Shown: piece after piece, positions 5,806 through 20,000 of the stretch | How the letters are laid out: each line of letters begins with the position of its first letter | How positions within the stretch are numbered: position 1 is the first letter of the stretch | From: Catajapyx aquilonaris | Lineage: Eukaryota | Length of the DNA stretch: 20,000 bases | NCBI GenBank assembly: GCA_000934665.2 | Contig: JYFJ02001879.1 | Coordinates: forward strand, 47,428-67,427 | Direction: 5' to 3' | Made by a program: the position numbers and the translations under genes | Notes under the pieces: generated by a model | The model's input: the letters and a program-made list of their open reading frames with translations, nothing else | Databases searched by the model: none | Told to the model about the DNA's origin: nothing

Positions 5806-6340
5806 CTACTGTTCATAAAATCCGGTCCTGTGCTCCGAGACAAAAGAGGCCTAAGATGTGGTGCTTATACATTAGCCTACTACATACTAGACCAGTTTCG
5901 AGAGAGACAATGCGGTATGGTATGTTCCTAAAAGCATTATTTTATATCTCACCCTATTCCGCCACCATCTCCATTTGCACATCCGAAGATCATTATCATA
6001 TTATTATATTGTCTCAATAAACTGGTCCGTGAGCTGCTCTTACCTTCACCTATAATTTCTTTTTTATCCAAAACCTGCTCCCTTTTGCTTCAACAACCCT
6101 TCACAAAGATAGGCTTAGAGTATAATTAGGACTGAACCACCATTTTAAGACCAAGCTCAAGGTCTATTCGCCGCATTTGGCGACTTCACGTTGAACATGC
6201 CACACCGTGCGAAAATGCTCAGCCAATAATAGTGCACATAGATTATGCCACTGTTATAAGGCAATAGGTCAAACAGCATCATTATCATTAATAATATTGT
6301 TGCGAGCAAATTAGTGAAGGCAGAAAATCTTGTAGCAAAA

Positions 6341-9247
6341 ATGGATTCAACAACAGTGAATGTGAGTATGGAAAAATGAAACTGATATTATGTCACTGAC
6401 ATAATTCTGGTTATGTCCTCATGCAGCATGAAAATGGCATAAGAAGTGCATCAAGTTTGATAAAAACATACGAATCTGAATTCCGTCTGAATCAGCTGCA
6501 ACAGTTGCTAGCATTGTACGAAGAGAATCGGTCCAATCTGATTCAATGCCTCCAGAGAGATTACAATACCGTAAGTACCCTGTGTTTGTTCCGAAAAAGT
6601 GTCAACCTACAATCGGCATCCCCTCCCCCTTCCAGACGTTTGATATCCAAGATGTGACCAGCCTGATCCAAGAGGTGAGAGCAACAATCGAGAAGATCCA
6701 AGAATGGACCGGCACCAAGAGGATGTCAGGATTGCTCTCGATGAATGTGGTCACTCTCAAGAAGGAATCTGTGGGCTCTGTCCTCATAGTGTCTGACCCT
6801 CACTATCCCCTGCACCTAAGCCTGCTGGCATTTCCTGCTGCCATATGCGCCGGAAATGTGGTGGTCATCAAAGCTCCAGATGGAACACCACTTTTCACCA
6901 GAGCCATCACCCAGCTGTTGCCCAAATATTTGGACCCGGTAAAGAAATTTGATATATGCCAAAAGATCAGGCCCGAAAAAGCAAATAAACAAATCGTAGA
7001 GCCAATAGAAATCCATTGTTCAATATTTGGCATTTTCAGCTACGAATAAATAATTAAACTATTGATAGTAATTAAAATAATTATTTAATTAAAATAATGC
7101 AAGTAATTAATTATATTATAATGGCGCAATTAAAATAATTATTTAATTAAAATTATAAAAGTAATTAATTATAATATAATGACGCAATTAAAATAATTAT
7201 TTTATTACAGTGATAAAAGTAATTAATTATAATATAATGGCGCAGTTAAAATAATTATTTAATTAAAATTATAAAAGTAATTAATTATAATATAATGACG
7301 TAGTTAAATAATTATATAATAATAGTTATATAATGATTAAACTAATTATTATATTATGACATATTTAAAATAATCCAATTATTATATTATGACATATTTA
7401 AAATAATCCAATTATTATATTATAACATAATTAAGATGTTAATATAATAATACTTAATCGTTTTATTAGAATTAAAAATATTGTATGATAAACTGCAATT
7501 ACATGATAATTAGAATGATATAATATAGCCATCATAATAAAACTAATATTAAAATAATTATACCGTACCCTAGATAATAGTAATTAGACTATTAATAAGT
7601 AATAAAAATAATCTTGATATAAACAAACAAACAAATAAAAATTGATATTCTTCTCTCTTGATTGGTGAAGTTCATTTAAGACCTAAAGATTCATAAAGAG
7701 CCAGAAAGTCAGAAATTTCTGCCTTCACTAGCACGTTAGCACGTGAAAGGATTAATTTGTGGATTTCTCTGTTGTATGACGACAAAATTGTGATGATAGG
7801 GCCTACGGTATATTATTTATTAGTTAATGATCGATTAATTATTATTTACCACCTCATATCATTCCCTTCGAACTATGCCCCTATTTTGATTACACAGGAA
7901 ATCTACCGGGTCATTCCTGGCGATTCGGATGTGGACACAGTGTTGGGAGGTCATTTCGATCGCATCGTGGTGATGGGCAAAGCAGGGATCATACGCAAGG
8001 TGTACGCGGCTGCTCAAAAGGAACTGACCCCAGTCACTGCGGTCACCAACGGGAAAAAGTAAGCCACATTTTGTCCAAACTATTCTCATTTATTACCTTC
8101 ATTATTTTCAGCCCAGTTTATATTGACGACTCTATTGATATCGAAGTAGCAGCCATCCACATAATTGAAGCAAAACTATCAAGTTTTAGCAGACCATGCG
8201 TAGGTCCTGACTACATTCTGTGCAACCAAGTAGTACAAGAGCATCTCATATCCACGGTGGTCAAGATGTCAGGTCAAATTGCCAACAAGTTCTGGCCAAT
8301 TAGCAGCAAGGAAAATTTCGAGTAAGTTTTTTATCGAATTGACATAACATTCTGATTACCAATATTGTTGTTTACATAGCCGATTGAAGTATCTGCTGCA
8401 AACTACAAAAGGACGCATTTTGTTAGGCGGACACATCGACGAGCAAGGACAACGTATATCTCTCACCATTGTTGCGGACGTAGCCAAAGACGACCCACTT
8501 TTTCAGGAAGAGTTTTTGGGCCCCATTCTTCCAATTGTTGAAGTGAAGACAGTGTACGACGTCATATCACTTACTCGTAGAACTCGGTAAGTAATTATCA
8601 CCTTATTATCTCACTGAAGTTCTAGTGTACCGCTGGGCCGTTACTCCCCCCTACCGTTATCGCGAGCACTAGCGACATTGCGCTATTGGTGGTTAAGACA
8701 TGAACCTCGAAGTTGTGAACTGTCGCAATTTTTTTTAACATTTCAGAGATCGTGCAAATTCCGGCAAGTGGACAGATTACAAGATGGCTGCAAATGTATT
8801 GTACGCCTTTACAACCAGGAGGATCGCCCAAGTGCGTCTGATGCAAGGGACATTGGCAGCCAACATTGTATTCAACAGCACCAATATTCAAAGTAAGTAC
8901 CCAACATATGAAGGGTGTGGTAGAAAAACGTGACAACACACATTTTTATGTCGCTGTTACTGTGGGAATTACACTGATAGATGTTATTTCCAGACGATGT
9001 CAGCAACTACTTTCTGTGTGGAGAAAGTGCTTACAAGTTATTCACCAAAACCAAGGTGGCGAATAGGCTGCCCTTGAAGCATGTGTCTGAACCTTCTGAC
9101 AAATCATCTGTTCATGAAGAGTCTTGTACCAACAGTAATTATTTTGGGACCAAGCAAGTTCTGGACAGCACCATCCCTCATAGGTTAAAGATAATAGCAG
9201 TTTCTATATTCGCTTTGTTCATAGCTCATTTCTTAGGATGGCAGTAG
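6341..9247 (+). CDS. ALDH3: Divergent ALDH3-family (fatty aldehyde dehydrogenase-like) protein, paralogue 1, 8 exons, ~481 aa, C-terminal TM anchor
   Basis: Hand-spliced exons 6341-6361, 6427-6570, 6636-6938, 7898-8058, 8112-8321, 8380-8586, 8747-8892, 8994-9247. All introns are GT-AG and the total is 1446 nt, in frame. ALDH3-like motifs: FRLNQLQQL, GSVLIVSDPHYP, AAICAGNVVVIK, LLPKYLDP, LTPVTAVTNGKNPVYID, RPCVGPDYILC, DDPLFQEEFLGPILPI. Hydrophobic tail IIAVSIFALFIAHFLGWQ. Confidence 0.9.
7070..7430. repeat. Intronic AT-rich minisatellites (58 bp x ~4, then ~33 bp x 2-3) in intron 3 of paralogue 1
   Basis: Unit aattaaaataattatttaattaaaattataaaagtaattaattataatataatgRcgc at ~7070, 7128, 7186 and 7244, followed by attatattatgacatatttaaaataatcca repeats. 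Confidence 0.85.
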
Positions 9248-9410
9248 AGGTCGCTTGACTAACAGAAAAATTGAGCAACTTATATATCAACTACTAGATA
9301 GTAATCTCCAGAGCCGAATATTGAACATTATATCATTTTTAAGTGAAATATTTTACTGCATTTTTGTATCGAATAGTTGTATTAAATTAGTGTTACAACC
9401 ATTTTTTTTC

Positions 9411-9416
9411 AATAAA
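9411..9416 (+). promoter_or_regulatory. Candidate polyadenylation signal of paralogue 1
   Basis: First AATAAA downstream of the stop at 9247 (~165 nt). Confidence 0.35.
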
Positions 9417-10919
9417 GAGGCAAATGGTTGTACTATTAATTCGCTAAATAATTGGCGTTAAGTGGGGAAATTCTGTTAAGTGGTATTAGTTGACGCTATT
9501 ACAGCATAGAAGTACACAAGGAAAAAAATAGTAGGAAATGTTCACTGTCAGTTCTGGCAGAGTCATAACAAATCCAGTTCTTAAACTTCGTTGTTACGGT
9601 TTTTTTCTGTCATTAAACTTTCTCCTTGAATATTTGTGACCTCAAGGCAAACTGAATTGACCTTCTGGAAGCAACCAGCAATCTGGTTTTCATAGGTATT
9701 GAATAAGAAGAAAAAAAAGAGAGCACTTTTTGAGCATCATACCGTGCGCAGGCAATGTTTTTGCAATATGACGGTCACGTAGTTTTACACATTACGTAAC
9801 ATTAAGCAAGCATTGTAAATCAAAACAACATTTCCAGGATATCTTCTAAATTTAAATAACAATTAAAATAAACCCACAAATGCGCAATAGGTATAAAATC
9901 CCCGAGAAAAACTACGCACTGTTGAAGGCCAATGGTAATTGCTCAAAATAAAATAACCGTGAAACAGACGTCATGTCAACTAATTAGCACTGAAAACTAT
10001 AAAGATGTCATCAATTAGCAACCTGGCTGTAAATTTTTGACATTTACACTTGCTTGTGGCTTCGTATTTAAAAAAAATAAACAATCATTGCTTCCCATAA
10101 GTATGTGAAATTGGCCGATTGTCCTAAAAAATATTCAGGTACCGGTATGTGATATCAGGAGCAAAATATTCCAAATATTTCAGGGCGGAAATCCGTTTGT
10201 TGCAATCAAAAAATTTCCCTTTCGTTCAAATGTTGTTAATAACAACACCGTGACTAACATATTAAAATTTTGATTTACTTTCAAGCCTCTTTCGCAAGAT
10301 TGGCTTTTCTCTCAACGCTATAGTGCAATAAACGTCCTTCAATATTTAAAGAGAGACTATTTATATTCACTATTTCCTTCATAAAACACTGCGTAGTGCA
10401 CTCATTAAATCATCTAGTATTTTCCAGACAGATTTGATGCCGGTTTTTTCTGGTTCAAGTAATATGCATCATAAACATAGGGTTGCATTTCCCCTTTTTT
10501 TCGCAGTCAGCTCACAAGATGACTGACCTACAATTTTTAAAGATGACAAAAAAAAGTTGGAATTTGTCTAGGGAAACCCCCTATTTCAAGGACGCTGAAC
10601 CTCACGTGTACAAAGGTGCACGCAATCACTTTTCTAGTTGTAAATGATTCTGTCACGAGTACACAGTAAAGATTGATGTATTAACTCTTAACACACTGAA
10701 ACTCGCCCATTAAAAACGTAAAATGCATTTTTTTAAAAAAAAATCGTTGTGCATTATTTCTTATGAGGTAAAGTTTTTTTTACAAATTTCTCCGAAAGTT
10801 TCTCTCAGAAAATGTCAAGTGCTTACCAAATAATTCAGAATTAATTGGATGCATCATTTCTGTAACAAAGGTACAGCATATGTCAACAATGCAATCTTCA
10901 AGTGTACACTCTTAACCAT

Positions 10920-11067
10920 TTACCTTCTCTAGAGAGGGTAAGAAAGTGGCCATTTTTTACCTTACATTGTAGGGTAAATATTCTTGGGTAAATTGATTCT
11001 AAGGTAAATTTTGCATGTATTACCTTAGAAAATAGAGGGTAAAAAGGGCCTCTTTTTTACCCTCTAT
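10920..11067. repeat. Cassette of four adjacent inverted repeats built from TTACCYT/ARGGTAA
   Basis: Hairpins at 10920-10941, 10956-10978, 10997-11030 and 11032-11067. Confidence 0.8.
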
Positions 11068-11723
11068 ACCCCCCAATATATTAAACACTTCAAAATGCGC
11101 ACCAAACCTGAAAAAAATAATTACTGGAAACTATTCGGTTCAAACTACTGTAGTTTAGAATGAGCCAGTTTTCAGCAGATATGTCCACATAATGCAAACG
11201 ATGCAGCATAGTTTAATAATTCATCACAAAATATTAGTTAGTGAAGAGAGTCATTGTCAATGTTCCGCACGGGTACCTTTATATACCTTCTTGAATAAGG
11301 AGGTCACAGTGAATTATGGTATACATCTGCTACTGGCAGTACAAAAACTCACTTGCCCAGATATTGCACAACCAGATCTCTCTTGGTGTATTGTTGGCAG
11401 AAGGTCGACCTTGTATTATTACAAAAAAATAAATAACACTCGATTACATCATTAATCCACAAGATTACTCGATAGTAAAAAAAGTTACAGAATCAAACGG
11501 TACATTTTATTATCCGTATAAGTTGTACAGTAAACAAAACTACGCACAATTTTGATTTTGTAAATGACAACACATGCCTTACGCACGGTCAATTAGCATA
11601 TGTAATGCAAACTATTCTTCAGCTTTTGTCAAATTTGTTACGGTTTTTGTCTCCGGTTGGTGAACTGCCTCACCTTGAAGTAGGCTACACTGACCTTGTG
11701 GAATATAACGAACCACACACGAG

Positions 11724-11952
11724 CTAGCAAAAAAAAACATTCCTTTTGCTAATAATATCTGATGCTAATATTCTCGCCATTTTTTGCAAATTAGCACTAT
11801 CCGGTCATAAATTTTTTTCTCAATATAATTATTGTTAATGAAATCACAATAGTAGCATAATTGTTGGCTCAAATATTACTAACACTAAAATATGTGATCT
11901 TACATCATAAACAGGTTCTTAGCACAAGGATCGCTAATTTTTTTTTTGCTAG
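11724..11952. mobile_element. MITE-like non-autonomous element with imperfect terminal inverted repeats
   Basis: Left end ctagcaaaaaaaaa...ttccttttgctaa mirrors right end ttagcacaaggat...ttttttttttgctag. Internal aatattctcgcca mirrors tggctcaaatatt. About 230 bp, non-coding. Confidence 0.55.
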
Positions 11953-12176
11953 TTCCTTGATTGGATGGGCATACTTTTAAGGGAAAGGTCTACACAGTGC
12001 GTATTAAGTATATCTAACTACTTTTTTTCACTATATGGGCCGGTTTTGTCTTTAGAGACGAATAGAAAGCTGGCCATATACTGACCAACCTCATTGGCTG
12101 TCCGCTCACCCAGTTCATACATGTTGTTGCGTTAGACACGAGAGGACGTGTAGTGTCTTCAATCGAACTGTGCGAG

Positions 12177-13937
12177 ATGGAGTTGAAAACAAAGTCTGGC
12201 CTATTGAAAGCATGGGATCGGCCATTTCGTCTAGAACAATTGCAAAAATTGATTGCATTGTACGAAGACAACATATCCACACTGATTGAATGTCTTCAGT
12301 CCGATTATGGCATGGTAAGTACACACACGATTCTAGTTACAAAAATCAGTAACTAAGTGTAATTTATTGTAGGGATCATACGCTCACCATATAAGGTCGC
12401 TGATTAGCGAGGTCAAAGAGTGTATCAGGAACTTCCATATTACAAACACCAAACGGACATCTGGACACTGGATGTCCAAACAAATTGTGACAGAAAAGCA
12501 TGAAGCGGCAGGATTGGTACTGATTGTGTCAGATAGCAATTACCCATTGCCACTCTGTTTGTTGTCATTGCCTGCAGCCATTGCTGCCGGAAATATGGTG
12601 GTCATCAAGCCATCGTTATGTACACCGGAGTTCAACAAAAAAATGGAGTACTTGATGTCGCAATGTTTGGACCAGGTTGGTGACACTGATAATTTAAAAT
12701 AATTTAAAATAAATTTATTCCGAACAATTTTTGAAGGACTGCTACCGGATAGTGTTGGACTTGTCTGTACCGGACGTTCTGGCCTGCCGTTTTGATCATA
12801 TCCTGTGCATGGGAAATGCGAAATTCGTACGTGTTGTGTACGGTGCAGCGCAGGAGCAACTGGTACCCGTGACGATCGTAACAAACGGAAAAAAGTACGT
12901 AGGATTTTATTAATCATTCAGAAAAATATTGTTGCCATAATATTTTGAGCGTAAAAGCAAATATTGTTGCCAACTTAATAGCCCCGTGTATGTGGACGAC
13001 ACCTGCTGTATTGAAGATGCTACAAGGCAAATCATACATGCCAAAATGTCCAGCTTGAGTCAACCGTGTAAGTCACCCGATTACATCATGTGTACTGAGC
13101 CTGTCCGGAACAAAATTGTGGACGAGGCTACCAGAATTTTGGGACAATCAGACACATTCGTACGAATAGCAAGCGAGGACAATTTCAGGTTGGTATAACT
13201 GGAGAGCTTACCATGCTAATGTACTGATACATGTGTTTCAGACAATTGAAGCGGCTTTTGGGTGACACAAAAGGACATGTGATTGGCGGACAGTTCGACG
13301 AAGGACAACGAATGTCGCTCACAATTGTCACGGGTGTCACAAAAGATGATCCGCTTTGGACAGAAGAGTTTGTGGGTCCTCTACTTCCGGTGATTACAGT
13401 GGCCAACGCCTACGACGCCATATCGTTTGTTCGTAACAAGTCAGTCAACGACACTTAAACTGACAAATACAATTTACTAAACGAGCATACTTTTCAGGCA
13501 ATGTATGGGAACATTTTGGCCTGACCATACGTTAAAACCGCTGGCATTTTACGCTTTCACGACCAAGCGGTTGACACAGATGCGTCTGATGGATGGTATT
13601 GTGGCGCAGAGAATTTTTTTCAATACAATACAAGCCATAGGTAAGTACTTAGTTACCATGGTACTTACCTCAAGTAATATAACACTGCTTTACAGACTGC
13701 GACACCGAGGCTGCTAGAGGACTGATCACAAGTGGACAAAACGCATTTGACATGTTCAGCAGAAGCAAAGTTGTGTATCGATGCGTACCTGAACCTCTAC
13801 CTTCCTTAGAGCACGATAAGTCAAACACTAATAATCGGAAATGGCAAATTTTACCTGCTAACATACCTGTTGCTTTCAATTTGAAGATTGTGGCTGTTGC
13901 TTTGTTGGTTCTATTCCTGGCCCAAATGTTTGGATAA
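12177..13937 (+). CDS. ALDH3: Divergent ALDH3-family protein, paralogue 2, >=7 exons, ~462 aa, C-terminal TM anchor (5' start uncertain)
   Basis: Exons 12177-12314, 12373-12675, 12737-12894, 12982-13188, 13242-13439, 13498-13640, 13696-13937. GT-AG introns, 1389 nt in frame. Motifs: FRLEQLQKL, VLIVSDSNYP, AAIAAGNMVVIKPS, PVTIVTNGKNPVYVD, QPCKSPDYIMC, EEFVGPLLPV, KPLAFYAF. Tail IVAVALLVLFLAQMFG. The frame is open upstream of ATG 12177 to a possible acceptor at 12135, so an extra 5' exon is possible. Confidence 0.88.
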
Positions 13938-14286
13938 AAAATGTTAAGTTCGACCAAATTTATTGAGATGTGTCATAATGTTTATTATGCTAATTGACAT
14001 TGATGGCTGTCAAATTAGTACGCTTTAGAGGCTATTTGTCAGGTTTGTAAATTGATATTAAAAAATATTATTCGTAAAGTGCTTAAGAGGTGGTCATTAA
14101 TTTCAATTTATTTCTAACGTTGATTACAGATTTGCATAAATATTAAAGTCACAACTGAATTAACAGGTGATTTTCAATACAGTATTTTTTTATAAAATCG
14201 TGGGATTACTTTAACAGAAAATTGACTTCATTATCAGAGAGGATGACACTAATGTAACTATGCAAATGCAAATGTATTCTATTGTG

Positions 14287-16110
14287 CTACACGATAGTGA
14301 GCCCAAAAATACCTACCAATGACACAAGTATTAGACCCACAGCCACTTTCATAACACCAAAATCACTGGATGGTACCAATTGTGATAGGCCGTCACCAGA
14401 AAATCCAGACTTGATCCAAGAATCTCGATGAGAAATCTTGATTCTCGTGAGCAACTTGTAGGCCTCTTCTCCTCTTATCACGTACATTTCGCTCGGAAGT
14501 GCGGAACTCTTTGAATCCACTGTTACAATACATTTTAGATCATTAGATTTCACATTGGATTTTTGTCTGTAAAAACATGCATACATACCGGTTGTGTCGT
14601 TGAATCGTATCATGTCCGATGGAATTGTCTGTAACATTCTGATACAAGGTATTCGCTTACTGATAAATGCGTAAGTCACCATCGCTCTCAGCTTGTAATC
14701 AGGCCATGTGGAATCTGTTACCTGCCTGTAATTAAATACCACAGTAAGCTTCTTACTCAACAAGACATGTCAATAAGTCACCCACATCTTTCGGATCTGA
14801 ATCATTGCGTCATATGAAGTGATCACAGTCGTAATAGGCAGGATGGGCCCTGAGAAATTTTGAGTCAAAAGCGGATCATCTTTAGGGACGTCAACAACAA
14901 CAGTCAGTGCCATTTGTCTACTATTGTCGTCCACATCTCCACCAATGACAATCCGACCTTTTGTGGACCGCAGAAGTGTCTTCAATTGGCTGCAAATTAA
15001 TTTATTAGCATCTTAATTTGCAGGTTACAGGATATCACCTACGTAAACTGGTCCTCCGAATGTATGTGGCAGAAATGGGGTTTACCATAGCCCATTTCCT
15101 TCATCATGGCCACAATTTTGTCCTGCAATGTGGCAGAACACAACACATAGTCTGGAGCTATGATGGGATACCTCAAATTAAGCAGCTTTTTCTGAAAGAT
15201 GAACTTGGCTGTTGCCTGGACATCACAAGATTCGTCCACAAAAACAGGGCTAAAGAGGACAAAAGACATTTGGTATTATCACATTGCGTAATTTATAACT
15301 CCACACCTACTTCTTTCCTCTGATACAACCAGTCACCGGAACACAATCGTTGTAAGCAGCCTTGTAGACCTTCCGACCCAACTTCTCCTTACCCATGTAC
15401 ACGACATGATCGTAGCTGAATGTCAAAAGCTTGTCCAGAAGTGATTCGTCGCCATGGACGACGTGAAAACAATTCTGAAAGCAAATGCTGGTAAGTACAC
15501 AAATAATTCTGGGCGTCGAAAGTGCTCACCTCATCAAGATACTTGGGAATTAATTCGGCAAACTTCGTTGAGGAAAGTGGAGTGACCTGCGAGGGTTTGA
15601 CAATGACTGTGTTCCCTGCAGCAATGGCAGCAGGAAGAGGTAAGAGGGACAGGTACAAAGGATAACAATCGTCTGCTACTATCAGCACCACTCCTACACC
15701 TTCCCGCTTTTGGGTGACCATACTGTTGGAAAATATGGTTTTGGTGACACGTTCAGTCCTGGTCCATTCATCGATGTGACTGATGCTGTCCTTAATTTCT
15801 GCGATCAGGTAGTCGATGTCCTTAAAGTCTTCCTTCTGCGTACAGTACATGTTAAGCAATGCAGTAAATTGTCACATGTTGCTACCTACTGCGTGATAGT
15901 CGCCTTGAAGACAGTCCATCAGAACATCTTTGTTTTCGCAGCAAAGTTGTAACAGTTTTGTCAGCTGAATGCGACGAAATTCAGCTGAACTTAACTTTCC
16001 AACATTTCCTTTATGGCGTGCCGCTTCCACCACCTGCAAGTAATTAAACTAATAATTAGACTAGGCCTAATAAAGTTAATTACTGATCGTACCTTAACTG
16101 CTTGATCCAT
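14287..16110 (-). CDS. ALDH3: Divergent ALDH3-family protein lacking catalytic Cys, paralogue 3, 8 exons, ~470 aa, C-terminal TM anchor
   Basis: Minus-strand exons 16110-16093, 16033-15890, 15835-15530, 15474-15311, 15249-15043, 14989-14786, 14725-14589, 14519-14287. GT-AG introns, 1413 nt in frame. Motifs: GVVLIVADDCYP, AAIAAGNTVIVKPSQ, ELIPKYLDE, PVTGCIRGKNPVFVD, YPIIAPDYVLC, QNFSGPILPI. Tail VAVGLILVSLVGIFGLTIV. Confidence 0.9.
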
Positions 16111-16163
16111 GTTTGTGAAGAGATAATCCGGAGTGTAATGAAGTAGTTGGAAAAATGTCCTTC

Positions 16164-16171
16164 TATTTATA
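16164..16171 (-). promoter_or_regulatory. Candidate TATA box of paralogue 3
   Basis: TATAAATA on the minus strand ~55 nt upstream of ATG 16110. A similarly placed motif occurs upstream of paralogue 4. Confidence 0.45.
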
Positions 16172-17452
16172 CCATGTTCATTACCATACAGCTGCTTTAC
16201 CCTTCACACGAAATCACGAAAACTCACTGATTGTTGGATCCTTGAGGCGAAATATGCGAATTGTTCATGTATCATACAGTATGTGGTAATAAACTGGTTG
16301 CAAAACTGGCACTCTTCACATGGACATGCAAATTTTAGATTGCTATTTACGCGGATTAAGCAAGATTGCAGCATGTCAAAGCATATTCATGGTGGTAATT
16401 TGGATGTTGTGCAAGTTTGGACGTACACGATGACTATGGTAACGCGTGTATCGCAGGTAGTTCCATCTCCCACTTCCGGAATATTATATTCTCCGGCGTT
16501 CACATATTATTTACAGTAGAGGGAAAGGGTTTATTTACGTCACTCTATCCGTGGTTACCACAGACAAATTTGCATAAATTACGTGTGCTTCTTACTCTCT
16601 ACTTTTGACAGGAAATAATTCTTGTACGGTTTATTAATTGGAGTCACTACTAATTACAAAAATATTTTGATATACATCGGTTTTTAAAATAACTCTCTTT
16701 TAAAATGTTCACTGGTTTAAAATAAGCAGATTTTCTCAAAAATTGATAACAATTTGCGTTGCAACGTATTTTGTTTCCGCTACAATATATTTTCATATGG
16801 CGCTGAATATTCTCACGGCCTCGCCTTTTTGAGAAGTGCGTGAGGACTTAATTGGTTTCATGAAGAAAGTGTTCCTAATTTAGGGCTTACATAAAGGTAT
16901 AATCTGAATTGCGGGCACTTAAATTGGCCCAATGAAAAACTCCTCCTTCTAATTACGACATATAGTGAGAAAATGCAAGTCTTTTCACTTCTAGCCTCTG
17001 CACCAAAAAGAAATAAAGTTACACCCATTACCTCTAGATCTAAGAGAGACAAGTGTGCCTGTTGACCTCTGAACAAAATATATTGGGAATTTGTATGATG
17101 TCAAGGAGGTCACAAACATATGAAACTTTTGATGTTGATTCGTGTTCCAATTTTTATGAAAACATTCAAGCTGAACACTGTGGTAATGAATTAGATTCAA
17201 TAACGAAGTTTGAAGCCTGTTCATATTTTATTGATCATTATACACTCATTGTACAGCACATAAGAGTATCTAAAATCAAGTGACTATCACATGCAAAATA
17301 ATCCAGGATAATAATATATTATTATCTCTGTTACTAGGATTTTGTAAGATACTGCTATTTCTTTACCAGAAAACTAACATGACCATCCATCGATTTTGAC
17401 CCAAGTGTGTCTATTGATTGTTCTACAGATATGAAGGGTTATAGGTTACATT

Positions 17453-19309
17453 CTACATGACCTTGAGCCCAAAAAAGCCTGCCATGGTCATCAGTGTCAC
17501 ACCCACCACCACTTTCATGACACCAGGATCACTGAACGACGACTGCACAAACTTGCATACACCATCTCCTATCAATTCCGACTTGATCCAAGAATCTCGG
17601 TGGGAAACCTTGATTCGCGTGAGCAACTTGAAGGCCTCTTCTCCTCTTATCACGCAAATTTCGTTCGGAAGTGCGGAATCCTTTGCTTCTCCTGTTGGAG
17701 TACAAATATCGTGAGGACTAGCCTTAATTTTCTTGTAAAAAGCTATACATACCCGTGGTGTCCATAAATCTTATTGTGTCAGACGGAATTATTTGCAACA
17801 TTCTGACACGTGATATTCGCCTATTAGTGAAAGCATAAGTGACCGTCGGACGCAACTTGTAATCTCTCCAGCTGGACTCTGTTTTCTGCCTGCAAGACCA
17901 TATCAAAATTAGGCTTATTACTAATCAAGTGGTTGTGAATTAGACTTACATTTTGTCGATCACAAGAATTGCGTCGTATAAAGTGAGTACTGTCGAGATC
18001 GGCAGTATAGGTCCTGAGAAATCTTGAGTCATAAGCGGATCATCTATAGGGACGTCAGCCACAACAGTCAGTGCAATTTGTCTGCTATTGTCGTCCACAT
18101 CTCCGCCAATGACAATCCGTCCTTTGGTGGACCGCAGAAGATTCTTCAGATGGCTGCAAATTTAGAGAGGGTGTTTAATTAGCAGCTTAATTGCAGATTA
18201 AAGCATATCACCTACGTAAACTGGTCCTCCGAATGTGTGTGGTGAAAATGTGGTTTCCCGGAGCCCATTTCTTTCATCGTGGCAACAATTCTGTCCTGCA
18301 ATGTGGCCGAACACAACACGTAGTCTGGAGCTGTGGTCGGATACTTCAAATTCAGTTTCTTCTTCTGAAAGATGAACTTGGCGGCTTCCTGGATGTCACA
18401 AGATTCGTCCACGAAGACAGGACTGCATGGAGAGGACAAAAGACATATTTGGTTTTGTTCAAATAGTGAAAGTCCAAACCTACTTCTTTCCTCTGATACA
18501 ACCAGTCACTGGAACACAACCATTGTAAGCAGCCTCGTAGACATTCCGACTCAGCTTCTCCCTGCCCATGTACACTATGTGATCATAGTTGAATCTCAAA
18601 AGCTTCTCCAGATGTGAAGAGTCGCCAGGGACGACATGAAAACAATTCTGAAACCAAATCCATAAGTCCACAAAATAATTATGAGTGTCTAAAGTGCTCA
18701 CCTCATCAAGATACTTCGGTATTAATTCGGCAAACTTCTTTGAGGAAAGTGGAGTGATCTGCGAGGGTTTGACAATGACGGAGTTTCCAGCAGCAATGGC
18801 AGCAGGAAGAGGCAAAAGGGACAGGTACAAAGGATAACAATCGTCTGCTACGATCAACACCACTCCTACACCTTCCCGCTTTTGGGTGACCACATTGTTG
18901 GAAAACATGCTTCCGGAGAGGTTTTCAGTCCTGGTCCATTTGTCGATGTGACTGATGCTGTCCTTAATTTCTGCTATCAGATAGTCGATGTCCTTCAAGT
19001 CTTCCTTCTGCGTACAGTACAAGTCCATACTTAGCAATACAGTAAATAATTGTAATATGTTGCTACCTACCGCGCGATAATCGCGTTGAAGACAATCCAT
19101 CAGAACGTCTTTGTTTTCGCAGAGAAGTTGTAACAGTTTTGTCAGCTGTACCCGACGAAATTTAGGAGAATGCAGATTCATTATATTTCCTTTACGACGT
19201 GCGGCTGTAATAGCCTGCAAATTAATAATACAAGACAGTAATAAATGAGGTTTAAATATGCATTGTTGTCATGCTCTGATGTGTTTCTTACCTTTATTGC
19301 CGGATCCAT
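17453..19309 (-). CDS. ALDH3: Divergent ALDH3-family protein lacking catalytic Cys, paralogue 4 (closest to paralogue 3), 8 exons, ~472 aa, C-terminal TM anchor
   Basis: Minus-strand exons 19309-19292, 19214-19071, 19007-18702, 18647-18484, 18422-18216, 18153-17950, 17889-17753, 17691-17453. GT-AG introns, 1419 nt in frame. The first seven exon lengths are identical to paralogue 3. Motifs: DDCYP, AAIAAGNSVIVKPSQ, PVTGCIRGKNPVFVD, YPTTAPDYVLC, QDFSGPILPI. Tail VVVGVTLMTMAGFFGLKVM. Confidence 0.9.
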
Positions 19310-19354
19310 GGTTGAAATGCCTGAAGTAAATCATAAATGAAGACGTATACTGTG

Positions 19355-19362
19355 TTTATATA
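19355..19362 (-). promoter_or_regulatory. Candidate TATA box of paralogue 4
   Basis: TATATAAA on the minus strand ~45 nt upstream of ATG 19309. Confidence 0.45.
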
Positions 19363-20000
19363 GGTGCACGCACCACTTCATTAGCATATTATATTAAGCA
19401 GTCTGTTGCCTTTGTTCCCATGAAACGCCCTGATCATGCCCTCCTCGAACCAGAATCAGCGTTGTGAATATTGCTCAACTGCGGTGCATGAGGAAATGAA
19501 TATGTTATATAACAGATGCAACATCTCTAGCTGAACCATGCGAATGATATTTTTTATTTAATTATGCATGAATAGATTGAGCAACAGAGATACTACCGAA
19601 AACCTTCTTTTGAGTTGGTTGAATAAAATTCCAACGGATGATGATATTACGTATATTGTGTTATGCAAGCTGTGCAAGCTCGCATTTGGAAATACAAACT
19701 CTAATATTGTAGAGTGTCTATCATGACTGTGTACTTATTTACGTCGTACGTTGAAAGCGGTTTTATACTTATATACCGTAGTCTTACTCGTATTTGCATT
19801 TTTATAAGTAAGTGATTATAACCTATCCTATACACTAATACATTATGAATCAAAATTTATTCTGCCTATTATGCGTCAACAACTGCTGTCAACAACACCG
19901 CCCGTCGCAAGTTCTGGGTGTTCCTGCTCCATCATGGCCAATACACCGTCGCCTGGGAGACTGCTGTCAACAACACCGTCCGGTGAGATAGAGTCTGCCT

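Follow-up and report, generated by a model that had tools for sequence, protein, structure and literature searches.

What do aldehyde dehydrogenase (ALDH) genes encode once the motifs that define the catalytic site have been replaced? This question is raised by a 20,000-nucleotide stretch of Catajapyx aquilonaris DNA (contig JYFJ02001879.1, forward strand positions 47,428 to 67,427; the whole stretch is hereafter called the window), which carries four ALDH3-like genes, g1 to g4. A first-pass annotation had described them as intact paralogs with shared intron phases, a C-terminal hydrophobic anchor and dismantled active sites, and had interpreted them as a lineage-specific expansion that kept the ALDH fold and abandoned canonical dehydrogenase chemistry. 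From the analysis presented here we conclude that the four genes are kept by selection despite the lost enzyme residues and probably do something other than oxidize aldehydes. At a probability of roughly 0.55, we regard their products as tail-anchored, non-catalytic derivatives of ALDH3A2 that bind ligands in the old substrate funnel or pair with active subunits.

The first point to settle is whether the four genes are complete. Gene models were assembled by coordinates from three-frame translations (6250–9300, 11980–13990, 14250–16200 and 17400–19350; Table 1) and contain GT..AG borders at 27 of 27 introns, no internal stop codon and an open coding length of 1389–1446 nt each; the paralogs are intact, as annotated. 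Position 6341 is the ATG of g1, and position 19309 the ATG of g4. All introns are short (26 measure 53–160 nt) apart from a single 959-nt intron in g1. The series of intron phases, 0,0,0,2,2,2,1, is common to g1, g3 and g4, and g2 follows the identical series (0,0,2,2,2,1) minus the mini first exon of 18–21 nt found in the other three, which bears out the shared gene structure. One ambiguity is resolved by comparison of the younger copies: introns 2 and 3 of g4 (63 and 54 nt) have lengths divisible by three and are free of stops, so that exons 2–4 also read as one open reading frame (ORF) of 262 amino acids (18480–19268, minus strand). Intron 2 of g3 contains an in-frame stop and must therefore be removed by splicing, which identifies the homologous in-frame sequences of g4 as introns rather than coding sequence.

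The proteins are recognizably class-3 ALDHs. Five of the eight ORF pieces scanned matched the Pfam profile PF00171 (Aldedh), four of them above the curated cut-off of 23 bits: the exon-3-bearing pieces of g4 (51.7 bits), g3 (48.7), g2 (34.1) and g1 (32.0). Exon 6 of g4 scored 20.4 bits, under the cut-off, and exons 5, 7 and 8 of g4, scanned as single ORF pieces, gave no match to this profile. With matches in exon pieces of all four genes, membership in the ALDH superfamily is apparent and the fold signature is kept, as had been claimed. Among solved structures, a phmmer search with the 262-residue read-through ORF of g4 found 49 distinct sequences at E ≤ 0.001, the top matches all being class-3 enzymes: 6k0z (2.1e-15), human FALDH 4qgk (7.7e-15), rat ALDH3A1 1ad3 (4.7e-14) and human ALDH3A1 3sza (1.3e-13). 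A word-index search with g4 exon 3 against longer proteins yielded five matches at 35–39% identity, all ordinary ALDH3-type proteins from Anopheles and Glaciecola, the named Anopheles matches being ALDH3B1-like and dimeric NADP-preferring-like. The nearest solved and named relatives are thus ALDH3 members, and the grouping in the tree described below agrees with class-3 membership.

The catalytic motifs tell a different story from the fold. To compare them, we aligned the four proteins with canonical ALDH3 sequences in MAFFT and used phmmer alignments to 4qgk, 3sza and 1ad3. In the order g1/g2/g3/g4, WNYP is replaced by PHYP/SNYP/DCYP/DCYP, KPSE by KAPD/KPSL/KPSQ/KPSQ, TG(S/N) by MGK/MGN/MGK/MGR, LELGGK by AVTNGK/IVTNGK/GCIRGK/GCIRGK, GQxC by SRPC/SQPC/RYPI/KYPT and EE(I/V)FGP by EEFLGP/EEFVGP/QNFSGP/QDFSGP, while all four genes have a shorter, different sequence in place of PFGG..G.SG.G. 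The same exchanges appear when g4 is set against individual structures: WNYP to DCYP, KPSE to KPSQ, YTG(N/S) to YMGR and TLELGGK to TGCIRGK against 4qgk and the bacterial class-3 enzyme 6k0z, GQTC to KYPT against human ALDH3A1 (3sza; variants 9ig2 and 8bb8), and EE(I/V)FGP to QDFSGP against other class-3 structures. Every motif substitution listed in the first-pass annotation was hence reproduced, both with canonical ALDH3 proteins and with solved structures of ALDH3A1 and FALDH. The TGS Thr, the EEIFGP Phe and the KPSE Glu have roles in cofactor positioning.

For the catalytic residues proper we used the FALDH positions Asn-112, Glu-207 and Cys-241 together with Glu-331 as reference (PMC4109017). 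The general base Glu-207 is gone in all four proteins, and the first Gly of the GG pair that follows it has become Asn, Asn, Arg and Arg in g1 to g4. The nucleophilic Cys-241 is kept in g1 and g2 and replaced by Ile in g3 and Thr in g4; the oxyanion-hole Asn-112 is kept in g2 only, whereas the Lys of KPSE is kept throughout. The annotated dismantling of the active sites is therefore complete in g3 and g4, which retain none of the four residues, but partial in g1 and g2, where the Cys and the second Glu persist, and in g2 the Asn as well.

Are these losses what mere divergence would produce? Among 64 canonical full-length relatives (the aberrant protein P0150, described below, was excluded) 75 alignment columns are conserved at ≥ 85%, and g1 to g4 each keep 44–49 of them. 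The columns that all four keep are mostly structural-core positions occupied by Gly, Pro, Leu, Ala, Asp and Tyr. Those that all four have lost comprise the WNYP Trp, the KPSE Glu, the TGS Thr, L-E-L-G in LELGGK, the GQxC Gly, the EEIFGP Phe and the greater part of the PFGG loop. By motif windows of our own definition, based on ALDH motifs, the four proteins all keep 8 of the 32 columns inside motifs and 28 of the 43 outside (Fisher p = 0.00095). The losses are thus not a matter of chance; the pattern of residues fits retention of the fold and selective replacement of the catalytic and nicotinamide-side pocket. Moreover, the four proteins share an insertion of about 13 residues, absent from canonical ALDH3, which follows the FIN-type strand, straddles the exon 6/7 junction and has the conserved core W-x-D-(Y/H)-(K/T).

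Wrong exon models or misalignment could in principle conjure up such motifs in ordinary, active class-3 ALDHs, and this is where transcripts matter. Five public sequencing runs contain the stretch, none of them registered as RNA. Over positions 6000–19500 we compared the DNA run X1 with X5, a run of unregistered kind from another study of the same organism, whose contigs reach g2 and exons 4–8 of g1. In g2, X5 contigs skip six of six introns (12313>12372, 12673>12735, 12894>12982, 13182>13236, 13439>13498 and 13638>13694); these joints match the model within the stated ambiguity, and one contig of 1365 nt spans the gene. In g1, three of the seven introns are skipped, likewise at the modeled borders (8321>8380, 8585>8746 (+1) and 8892>8994), and a loose end at 8058 runs on into the first letters of exon 5. 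No such joint exists in X1; consequently, X5 behaves as a transcriptome. Three X5 differences are listed within g2, all of them synonymous.

It follows that g2, nearly whole, and g1, over exons 4–8, are spliced as modeled. Because the flanking junctions are confirmed by X5 contigs in both genes, the insertion and the PFGG deletion are neither modeling artifacts nor missed exons. Of the RNA-based check that had been proposed, these transcript-like contigs supply the splicing part for g2 nearly in full and for g1 in part; some room for modeling error is left in g3, g4 and exons 1–3 of g1, whose models were built from the sequence. However, the motif residues lie inside exons and not at junctions, the motifs align without gaps to solved ALDH3A1 and FALDH, and g2, confirmed intron by intron, carries the same changes. 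Nor does the window hold further ALDH-like pieces that could supply the canonical motifs: a tblastn search of the four proteins against it gave 64 matches, none outside the gene spans. We consider it scarcely credible that the unusual motifs stem from faulty models.

To which relatives do these proteins belong? Identity to canonical ALDH3 proteins is about 30–36% across most of the length. An exhaustive phmmer search against 1.84 billion representative proteins gave 2481 matches with E ≤ 0.001. Of these, 250 lie at ≤ 1e-10, and not one lies at ≤ 1e-30; the top match (1.3e-27) is a 1020-residue protein consisting of two canonical ALDH3 units. Neither among these representatives nor in the searches of longer and similar-length proteins did we find a close counterpart or ortholog of g1 to g4. 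A profile of the four exon-3 translations, run against proteins of similar length, added 116 proteins, of which 115 fit the motif pattern (WN in 114 and FN in one; KPSE in 114 and KPSH in one). The remaining one reads WNEP...KPSE by eye, so that none of the 116 is degenerate. We further aligned 154 nearest homologs (the stored phmmer matches minus the 1020-residue double protein): the Asn is present in 154/154 and the Lys in 153/154, the general-base Glu of LELGGK in 127 of the 133 with a residue there, and the Cys in 108 of 115. The few exceptions are truncated fragments, apart from the full-length P0150.

P0150 is an ALDH3-like protein of 493 residues with a hydrophobic C terminus, in which Glu is replaced by Asp, Cys by Ala, KPSE by KPSN and PFGG by PYGG, while the Asn is kept. 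It lies outside the grouping of g1 to g4 in the tree and has its own, different set of losses, which hints that catalytically altered, tail-anchored ALDH3 paralogs arose more than once.

In a maximum likelihood tree (LG+G4, quick search) of the four proteins and 65 full-length matches, 69 rows in total and most of them unnamed, g1 to g4 form a single clade (SH-aLRT support 100) whose stem measures 0.88 substitutions per site. Within it, g1 pairs with g2 (support 94) and g3 with g4 (100). The clade sits in a starred 12-row set (96*), in which the Anopheles ALDH3 rows are nearest by path length; outside the clade, the closest rows are P0028 and the Anopheles ALDH3B1-like row. Gene structure also connects the cluster to canonical ALDH3. 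All four genes possess an intron right after the residue that follows KYLD (intron 3 of g1, g3 and g4; intron 2 of g2), and six canonical ALDH3 exon fragments from other organisms (P0016, P0103, P0104, P0156, P0157 and P0158) show a 'VS...' read-through at this site. Since the canonical fragments read through there, the intron site was inherited from a canonical ALDH3 gene.

Of the lineage-specific expansion, the single clade and the lack of a counterpart in the databases searched are upheld; the latter argument is one of database absence, and the paralogs are old (38–47% identity) rather than products of a recent burst. Protein identity amounts to 76% between g3 and g4, 47% between g1 and g2, and 38–41% between the pairs. 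The family is old, yet every copy is open.

This age bears directly on the question whether the genes are decaying unprocessed pseudogenes that happen to be still open, as the lost catalytic residues, the long stem branch of 0.88 and a transcript record that covers g1 and g2 but is silent on g3 and g4 either way might lead one to think. For g3 and g4, the Nei–Gojobori method gives rates of non-synonymous (dN) and synonymous substitution (dS) of 0.136 and 0.460, that is, a dN/dS of 0.296 (bootstrap 95% confidence interval 0.22–0.39), and in 2000 replicates the value never reaches 0.5. Taken by fifths of the gene, the ratio is 0.21–0.35 in all five, and exons are better conserved than introns (83% versus 68% identity). 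In the older pairs the proportions of non-synonymous differences are 0.35–0.43 versus 0.70–0.72 for synonymous ones; dN/dS for pairs other than g3/g4 was discarded, as dS is saturated (> 2). Furthermore, all four copies are open with every splice site intact despite 53–62% protein divergence among the older paralogs, g1 and g2 yield spliced contigs, and it is the structural core columns that are kept and the motif columns that are lost. A dN/dS of 0.30, far from the value of 1 expected for decay, together with these contigs largely refutes the pseudogene reading already, and we rate it as very unlikely.

Read depth adds an observation on the younger pair. Across 14569–19500, the depth of X1 on exon bins of g3 and g4 is 60–130, against a baseline of 30–37, and a single X1 contig joins 15847 to 19068, which makes it a g3/g4 chimera. 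Both suggest cross-mapping between g3 and g4, and possibly that the genome holds divergent alleles or additional copies of the g3/g4 type elsewhere. Because g3, g4 and possibly other copies cross-map at 90% likeness, the X1 differences over g3 and g4 (16 synonymous to 15 non-synonymous) were rejected as a measure of polymorphism.

Where might the proteins reside? FALDH possesses a C-terminal transmembrane anchor preceded by a hydrophobic gatekeeper helix (PMC4109017). A single transmembrane-type stretch near the C terminus, as in FALDH, is found in all four proteins by hydropathy, the sole measure applied here (Kyte–Doolittle, 17-residue means; Table 1), and agrees with the annotated hydrophobic tail. 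It would anchor g1 to g4 in a membrane.

The residue states mapped onto the tree point to a plausible order of events. The four genes would descend from one membrane-bound class-3 ALDH gene of the ALDH3A2/FALDH type. In their common ancestor the general-base Glu, the LELGG loop, the TG(S/N) Thr, the KPSE Glu, the EEIFGP Phe and the PFGG loop would already have been missing, and the insertion of about 13 residues would already have been present. Later, the g3/g4 branch would have lost its Cys nucleophile, its oxyanion Asn and its second Glu, and g1 independently the Asn. Since the general base and the conserved nicotinamide-side residues are gone in all four proteins, none of them should be a conventional NAD(P)+ aldehyde dehydrogenase. 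In g3 and g4 the replacement of the canonical Cys precludes a thiohemiacetal at that position, and judging from these residues the two are certainly not thiol-dependent dehydrogenases; g1 and g2, with their Cys, might retain an altered chemistry. The abandonment of canonical dehydrogenase chemistry that had been postulated is supported at the level of sequence, by the selective replacement of catalytic and nicotinamide-side positions.

What function would remain? The kept ALDH core implies a dimeric fold and a substrate funnel. Having presumably lost dehydrogenase activity, the proteins could act as non-catalytic ALDH-fold proteins at the membrane of the endoplasmic reticulum or of peroxisomes, in a ligand-binding or a regulatory role: they might use the former funnel to bind or trap ligands derived from lipids, or they might dimerize with an active ALDH3 subunit or with one another.

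Several points weigh against this non-catalytic interpretation. In the pre-anchor segment the alignment with canonical proteins is poor, the residues of g1 and g2 are polar, and a RYPPY-like motif is missing; with neither this motif nor the gatekeeper helix recognizably conserved, a FALDH-like membrane-facing funnel is uncertain. The RNA nature of X5 was deduced from its intron-less contigs, not taken from its record, and selection on g1 and g2 is seen indirectly, their dS being saturated. Activity, cofactor binding and localization are judged throughout from sequence. The term 'non-catalytic' is weakest for g1 and g2, given the residues they keep and the precedent of ALDH6A1 discussed below, and the new Cys residues of g3 and g4 at the former Asn and Glu positions could form a new reactive center rather than a dead one.

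The last two points lead to the chief competitor of the preferred reading, namely that g1 to g4 are neofunctionalized enzymes whose ALDH scaffold now serves a different reaction. In g1 and g2, the retained Cys may possibly act without water-mediated deacylation, for instance in passing an acyl group to a thiol or some other acceptor, in ester hydrolysis or in covalent aldehyde capture; in g3 and g4, the two new pocket cysteines would permit, for example, thiol–disulfide or metal-dependent chemistry. Human ALDH6A1, a CoA-acylating methylmalonate-semialdehyde dehydrogenase, is described as active with its general-base Glu replaced by Asn (PMC10650815), which means that loss of this Glu alone need not kill catalysis. 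It resembles g2, where the Glu has likewise gone and both Cys and Asn persist, but it belongs to another ALDH family and has a normal NAD+ site, while in g2 the elements Thr, Leu-x-Leu-Gly, Phe and PFGG are missing as well. New chemistry would also accord with the purifying selection (dN/dS 0.30), with the conserved insertion motif, and with the finding that g3 and g4 both have Cys in place of the Asn and the Glu, whereas they differ at the old Cys (Ile/Thr) and second Glu (Asn/Asp) positions. On the other hand, none of the four proteins keeps the nicotinamide-side set (TGS Thr, LELG, EEIFGP Phe and KPSE Glu), which is replaced as a whole; this makes hydride transfer to NAD(P)+ unlikely as the new reaction, and the abstracts returned by our literature searches contained no precedent for a relocated ALDH nucleophile. 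We therefore hold altered catalysis to be possible but tentative.

A more elaborate version combines both pairs. In g3 and g4 the nucleophile would have moved, giving a two-Cys center that is redox-active, metal-binding or suited to covalent sensing of lipid aldehydes, and g1 and g2 would serve as Cys-bearing partners that capture aldehydes without releasing the acid, so that ALDH3 subunits would jointly form a hitherto undescribed membrane system for sensing or handling aldehydes. This we deem doubtful.

The coordinates on which the preceding argument draws are collected in Table 1.

Table 1. Gene models of the ALDH3-like cluster and positions of catalytic equivalents, insertion core and hydrophobic tail, numbered along the window.
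Feature	Gene	Position	Strand	Details
Gene	g1	6341..9247	+	ALDH3-like, 8 exons, 481 aa; 7/7 introns GT-AG, stop-free
Gene	g2	12177..13937	+	ALDH3-like, 7 exons, 462 aa
Gene	g3	14287..16110	-	ALDH3-like, 8 exons, 470 aa
Gene	g4	17453..19309	-	ALDH3-like, 8 exons, 472 aa
Exons	g1	6341-6361, 6427-6570, 6636-6938, 7898-8058, 8112-8321, 8380-8586, 8747-8892, 8994-9247	+	
Exons	g2	12177-12314, 12373-12675, 12737-12894, 12982-13188, 13242-13439, 13498-13640, 13696-13937	+	
Exons	g3	16110-16093, 16033-15890, 15835-15530, 15474-15311, 15249-15043, 14989-14786, 14725-14589, 14519-14287	-	
Exons	g4	19309-19292, 19214-19071, 19007-18702, 18647-18484, 18422-18216, 18153-17950, 17889-17753, 17691-17453	-	
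Asn-112/Glu-207/Cys-241/Glu-331 of FALDH	g1	6801-6803, 8042-8044, 8197-8199, 8510-8512	+	His, Val, Cys, Glu
Asn-112/Glu-207/Cys-241/Glu-331 of FALDH	g2	12538-12540, 12878-12880, 13067-13069, 13366-13368	+	Asn, Val, Cys, Glu
Asn-112/Glu-207/Cys-241/Glu-331 of FALDH	g3	15667-15665, 15327-15325, 15164-15162, 14859-14857	-	Cys, Cys, Ile, Asn
Asn-112/Glu-207/Cys-241/Glu-331 of FALDH	g4	18839-18837, 18500-18498, 18337-18335, 18023-18021	-	Cys, Cys, Thr, Asp
Insertion core	g1	8769..8783	+	from alignments
Insertion core	g2	13517-13531	+	from alignments
Insertion core	g3	14706-14692	-	from alignments
Insertion core	g4	17870-17856	-	from alignments
Hydrophobic stretch, putative tail anchor	g1	9185..9235	+	Kyte-Doolittle mean 2.32; 3 residues after
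Hydrophobic stretch, putative tail anchor	g2	13878..13928	+	Kyte-Doolittle mean 2.58; 2 residues after
Hydrophobic stretch, putative tail anchor	g3	14296..14352	-	Kyte-Doolittle mean 2.68; 2 residues after
Hydrophobic stretch, putative tail anchor	g4	17465..17524	-	Kyte-Doolittle mean 1.87, weakest of the four; 3 residues after

The surroundings of the cluster are those of eukaryotic DNA, with a G+C content of 34–45% over most of the window and 0.24 in the bin 7001–8000. Between g1 and g2, the segment 10510–11411 reaches an X1 word depth of 11,706 (10510–10960) and 2,031 (10961–11411) over the baseline of 30–37, shows many loose ends at 10904–10941 and is crossed by an X5 contig that joins opposite strands at 10953/11045. 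Direct or inverted repeats of at least 25 nt were not found within 9300–12150. The segment is probably a dispersed transposable element of very high copy number. In the spacer downstream of g1 lies an unspliced X5 contig of 589 nt (9402–9990, minus strand), which could represent a long 3' untranslated region, an independent transcript or a transcribed repeat. Toward the start of the window, two open frames on the minus strand (1146–1517, 123 amino acids; 2–247, 82 amino acids) occupy a G+C-richer stretch and look coding; they may belong to a neighboring gene. Neither frame had a Pfam match, in a scan that covered 1146–1517 and seven other ORFs and was negative throughout, and for the two frames we found no homolog among longer proteins and no useful Atlas neighbor (best score 0.82). 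The window contains no Rfam match and no tRNA. Single N letters at 2296 and 5802, inside G/C homopolymer runs, are likely assembly uncertainties.

With regard to its significance, the cluster offers a natural series: among the four catalytic residues g2 lacks the Glu only, g1 the Glu and the Asn, and g3 and g4 all four, with two new Cys residues in exchange. Such a series could show how an oxidoreductase turns stepwise into a binding, regulatory or differently reactive membrane protein. Automatic annotation would misname all four products 'aldehyde dehydrogenase'. To our knowledge, very few ALDH-fold pseudoenzymes have been recognized, ALDH16A1 and the lens crystallins being the cases we are aware of. 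An already characterized subfamily with these motifs, which would have spoken against a new one, appeared neither in our sequence searches nor in the literature searches, and full-text searches, judged at the level of abstracts, revealed no class-3 or FALDH-type, tail-anchored pseudoenzyme family with a dismantled active site.

Among known systems, FALDH/ALDH3A2 (4qgk) and ALDH3A1 (3sza, 1ad3) are closest: they are the best solved matches, have the same overall length and share the identity stated above. The cluster has the post-KYLD intron position in common with canonical ALDH3 and a C-terminal hydrophobic tail like that reported for FALDH (PMC4109017). It departs from FALDH in that g1 and g2 have replaced some, and g3 and g4 all, of Asn, Glu, Cys and Glu, the LELGG, TGS, EEIFGP and PFGG elements are degenerate, the insertion of about 13 residues is extra and the pre-anchor segment bears no recognizable likeness to the gatekeeper helix. 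Human ALDH16A1 is described as devoid of catalytic residues and is regarded as non-catalytic, with roles in protein interaction (PMC10650815). By this description, and not by sequence, g3 and g4 are comparable, as they also lack any catalytic residue; however, ALDH16A1 belongs to another ALDH family and forms no tail-anchored tandem cluster, and g1 and g2 differ from it in keeping the Cys. The recruitment of the ALDH fold to a non-enzymatic, structural role is exemplified by the omega-crystallins of cephalopods and scallop and by ALDH3A1 as a corneal crystallin. These crystallins are soluble class 1/2 proteins or, in the case of ALDH3A1, a still active and very highly expressed enzyme, whereas g1 to g4 carry a putative membrane tail.

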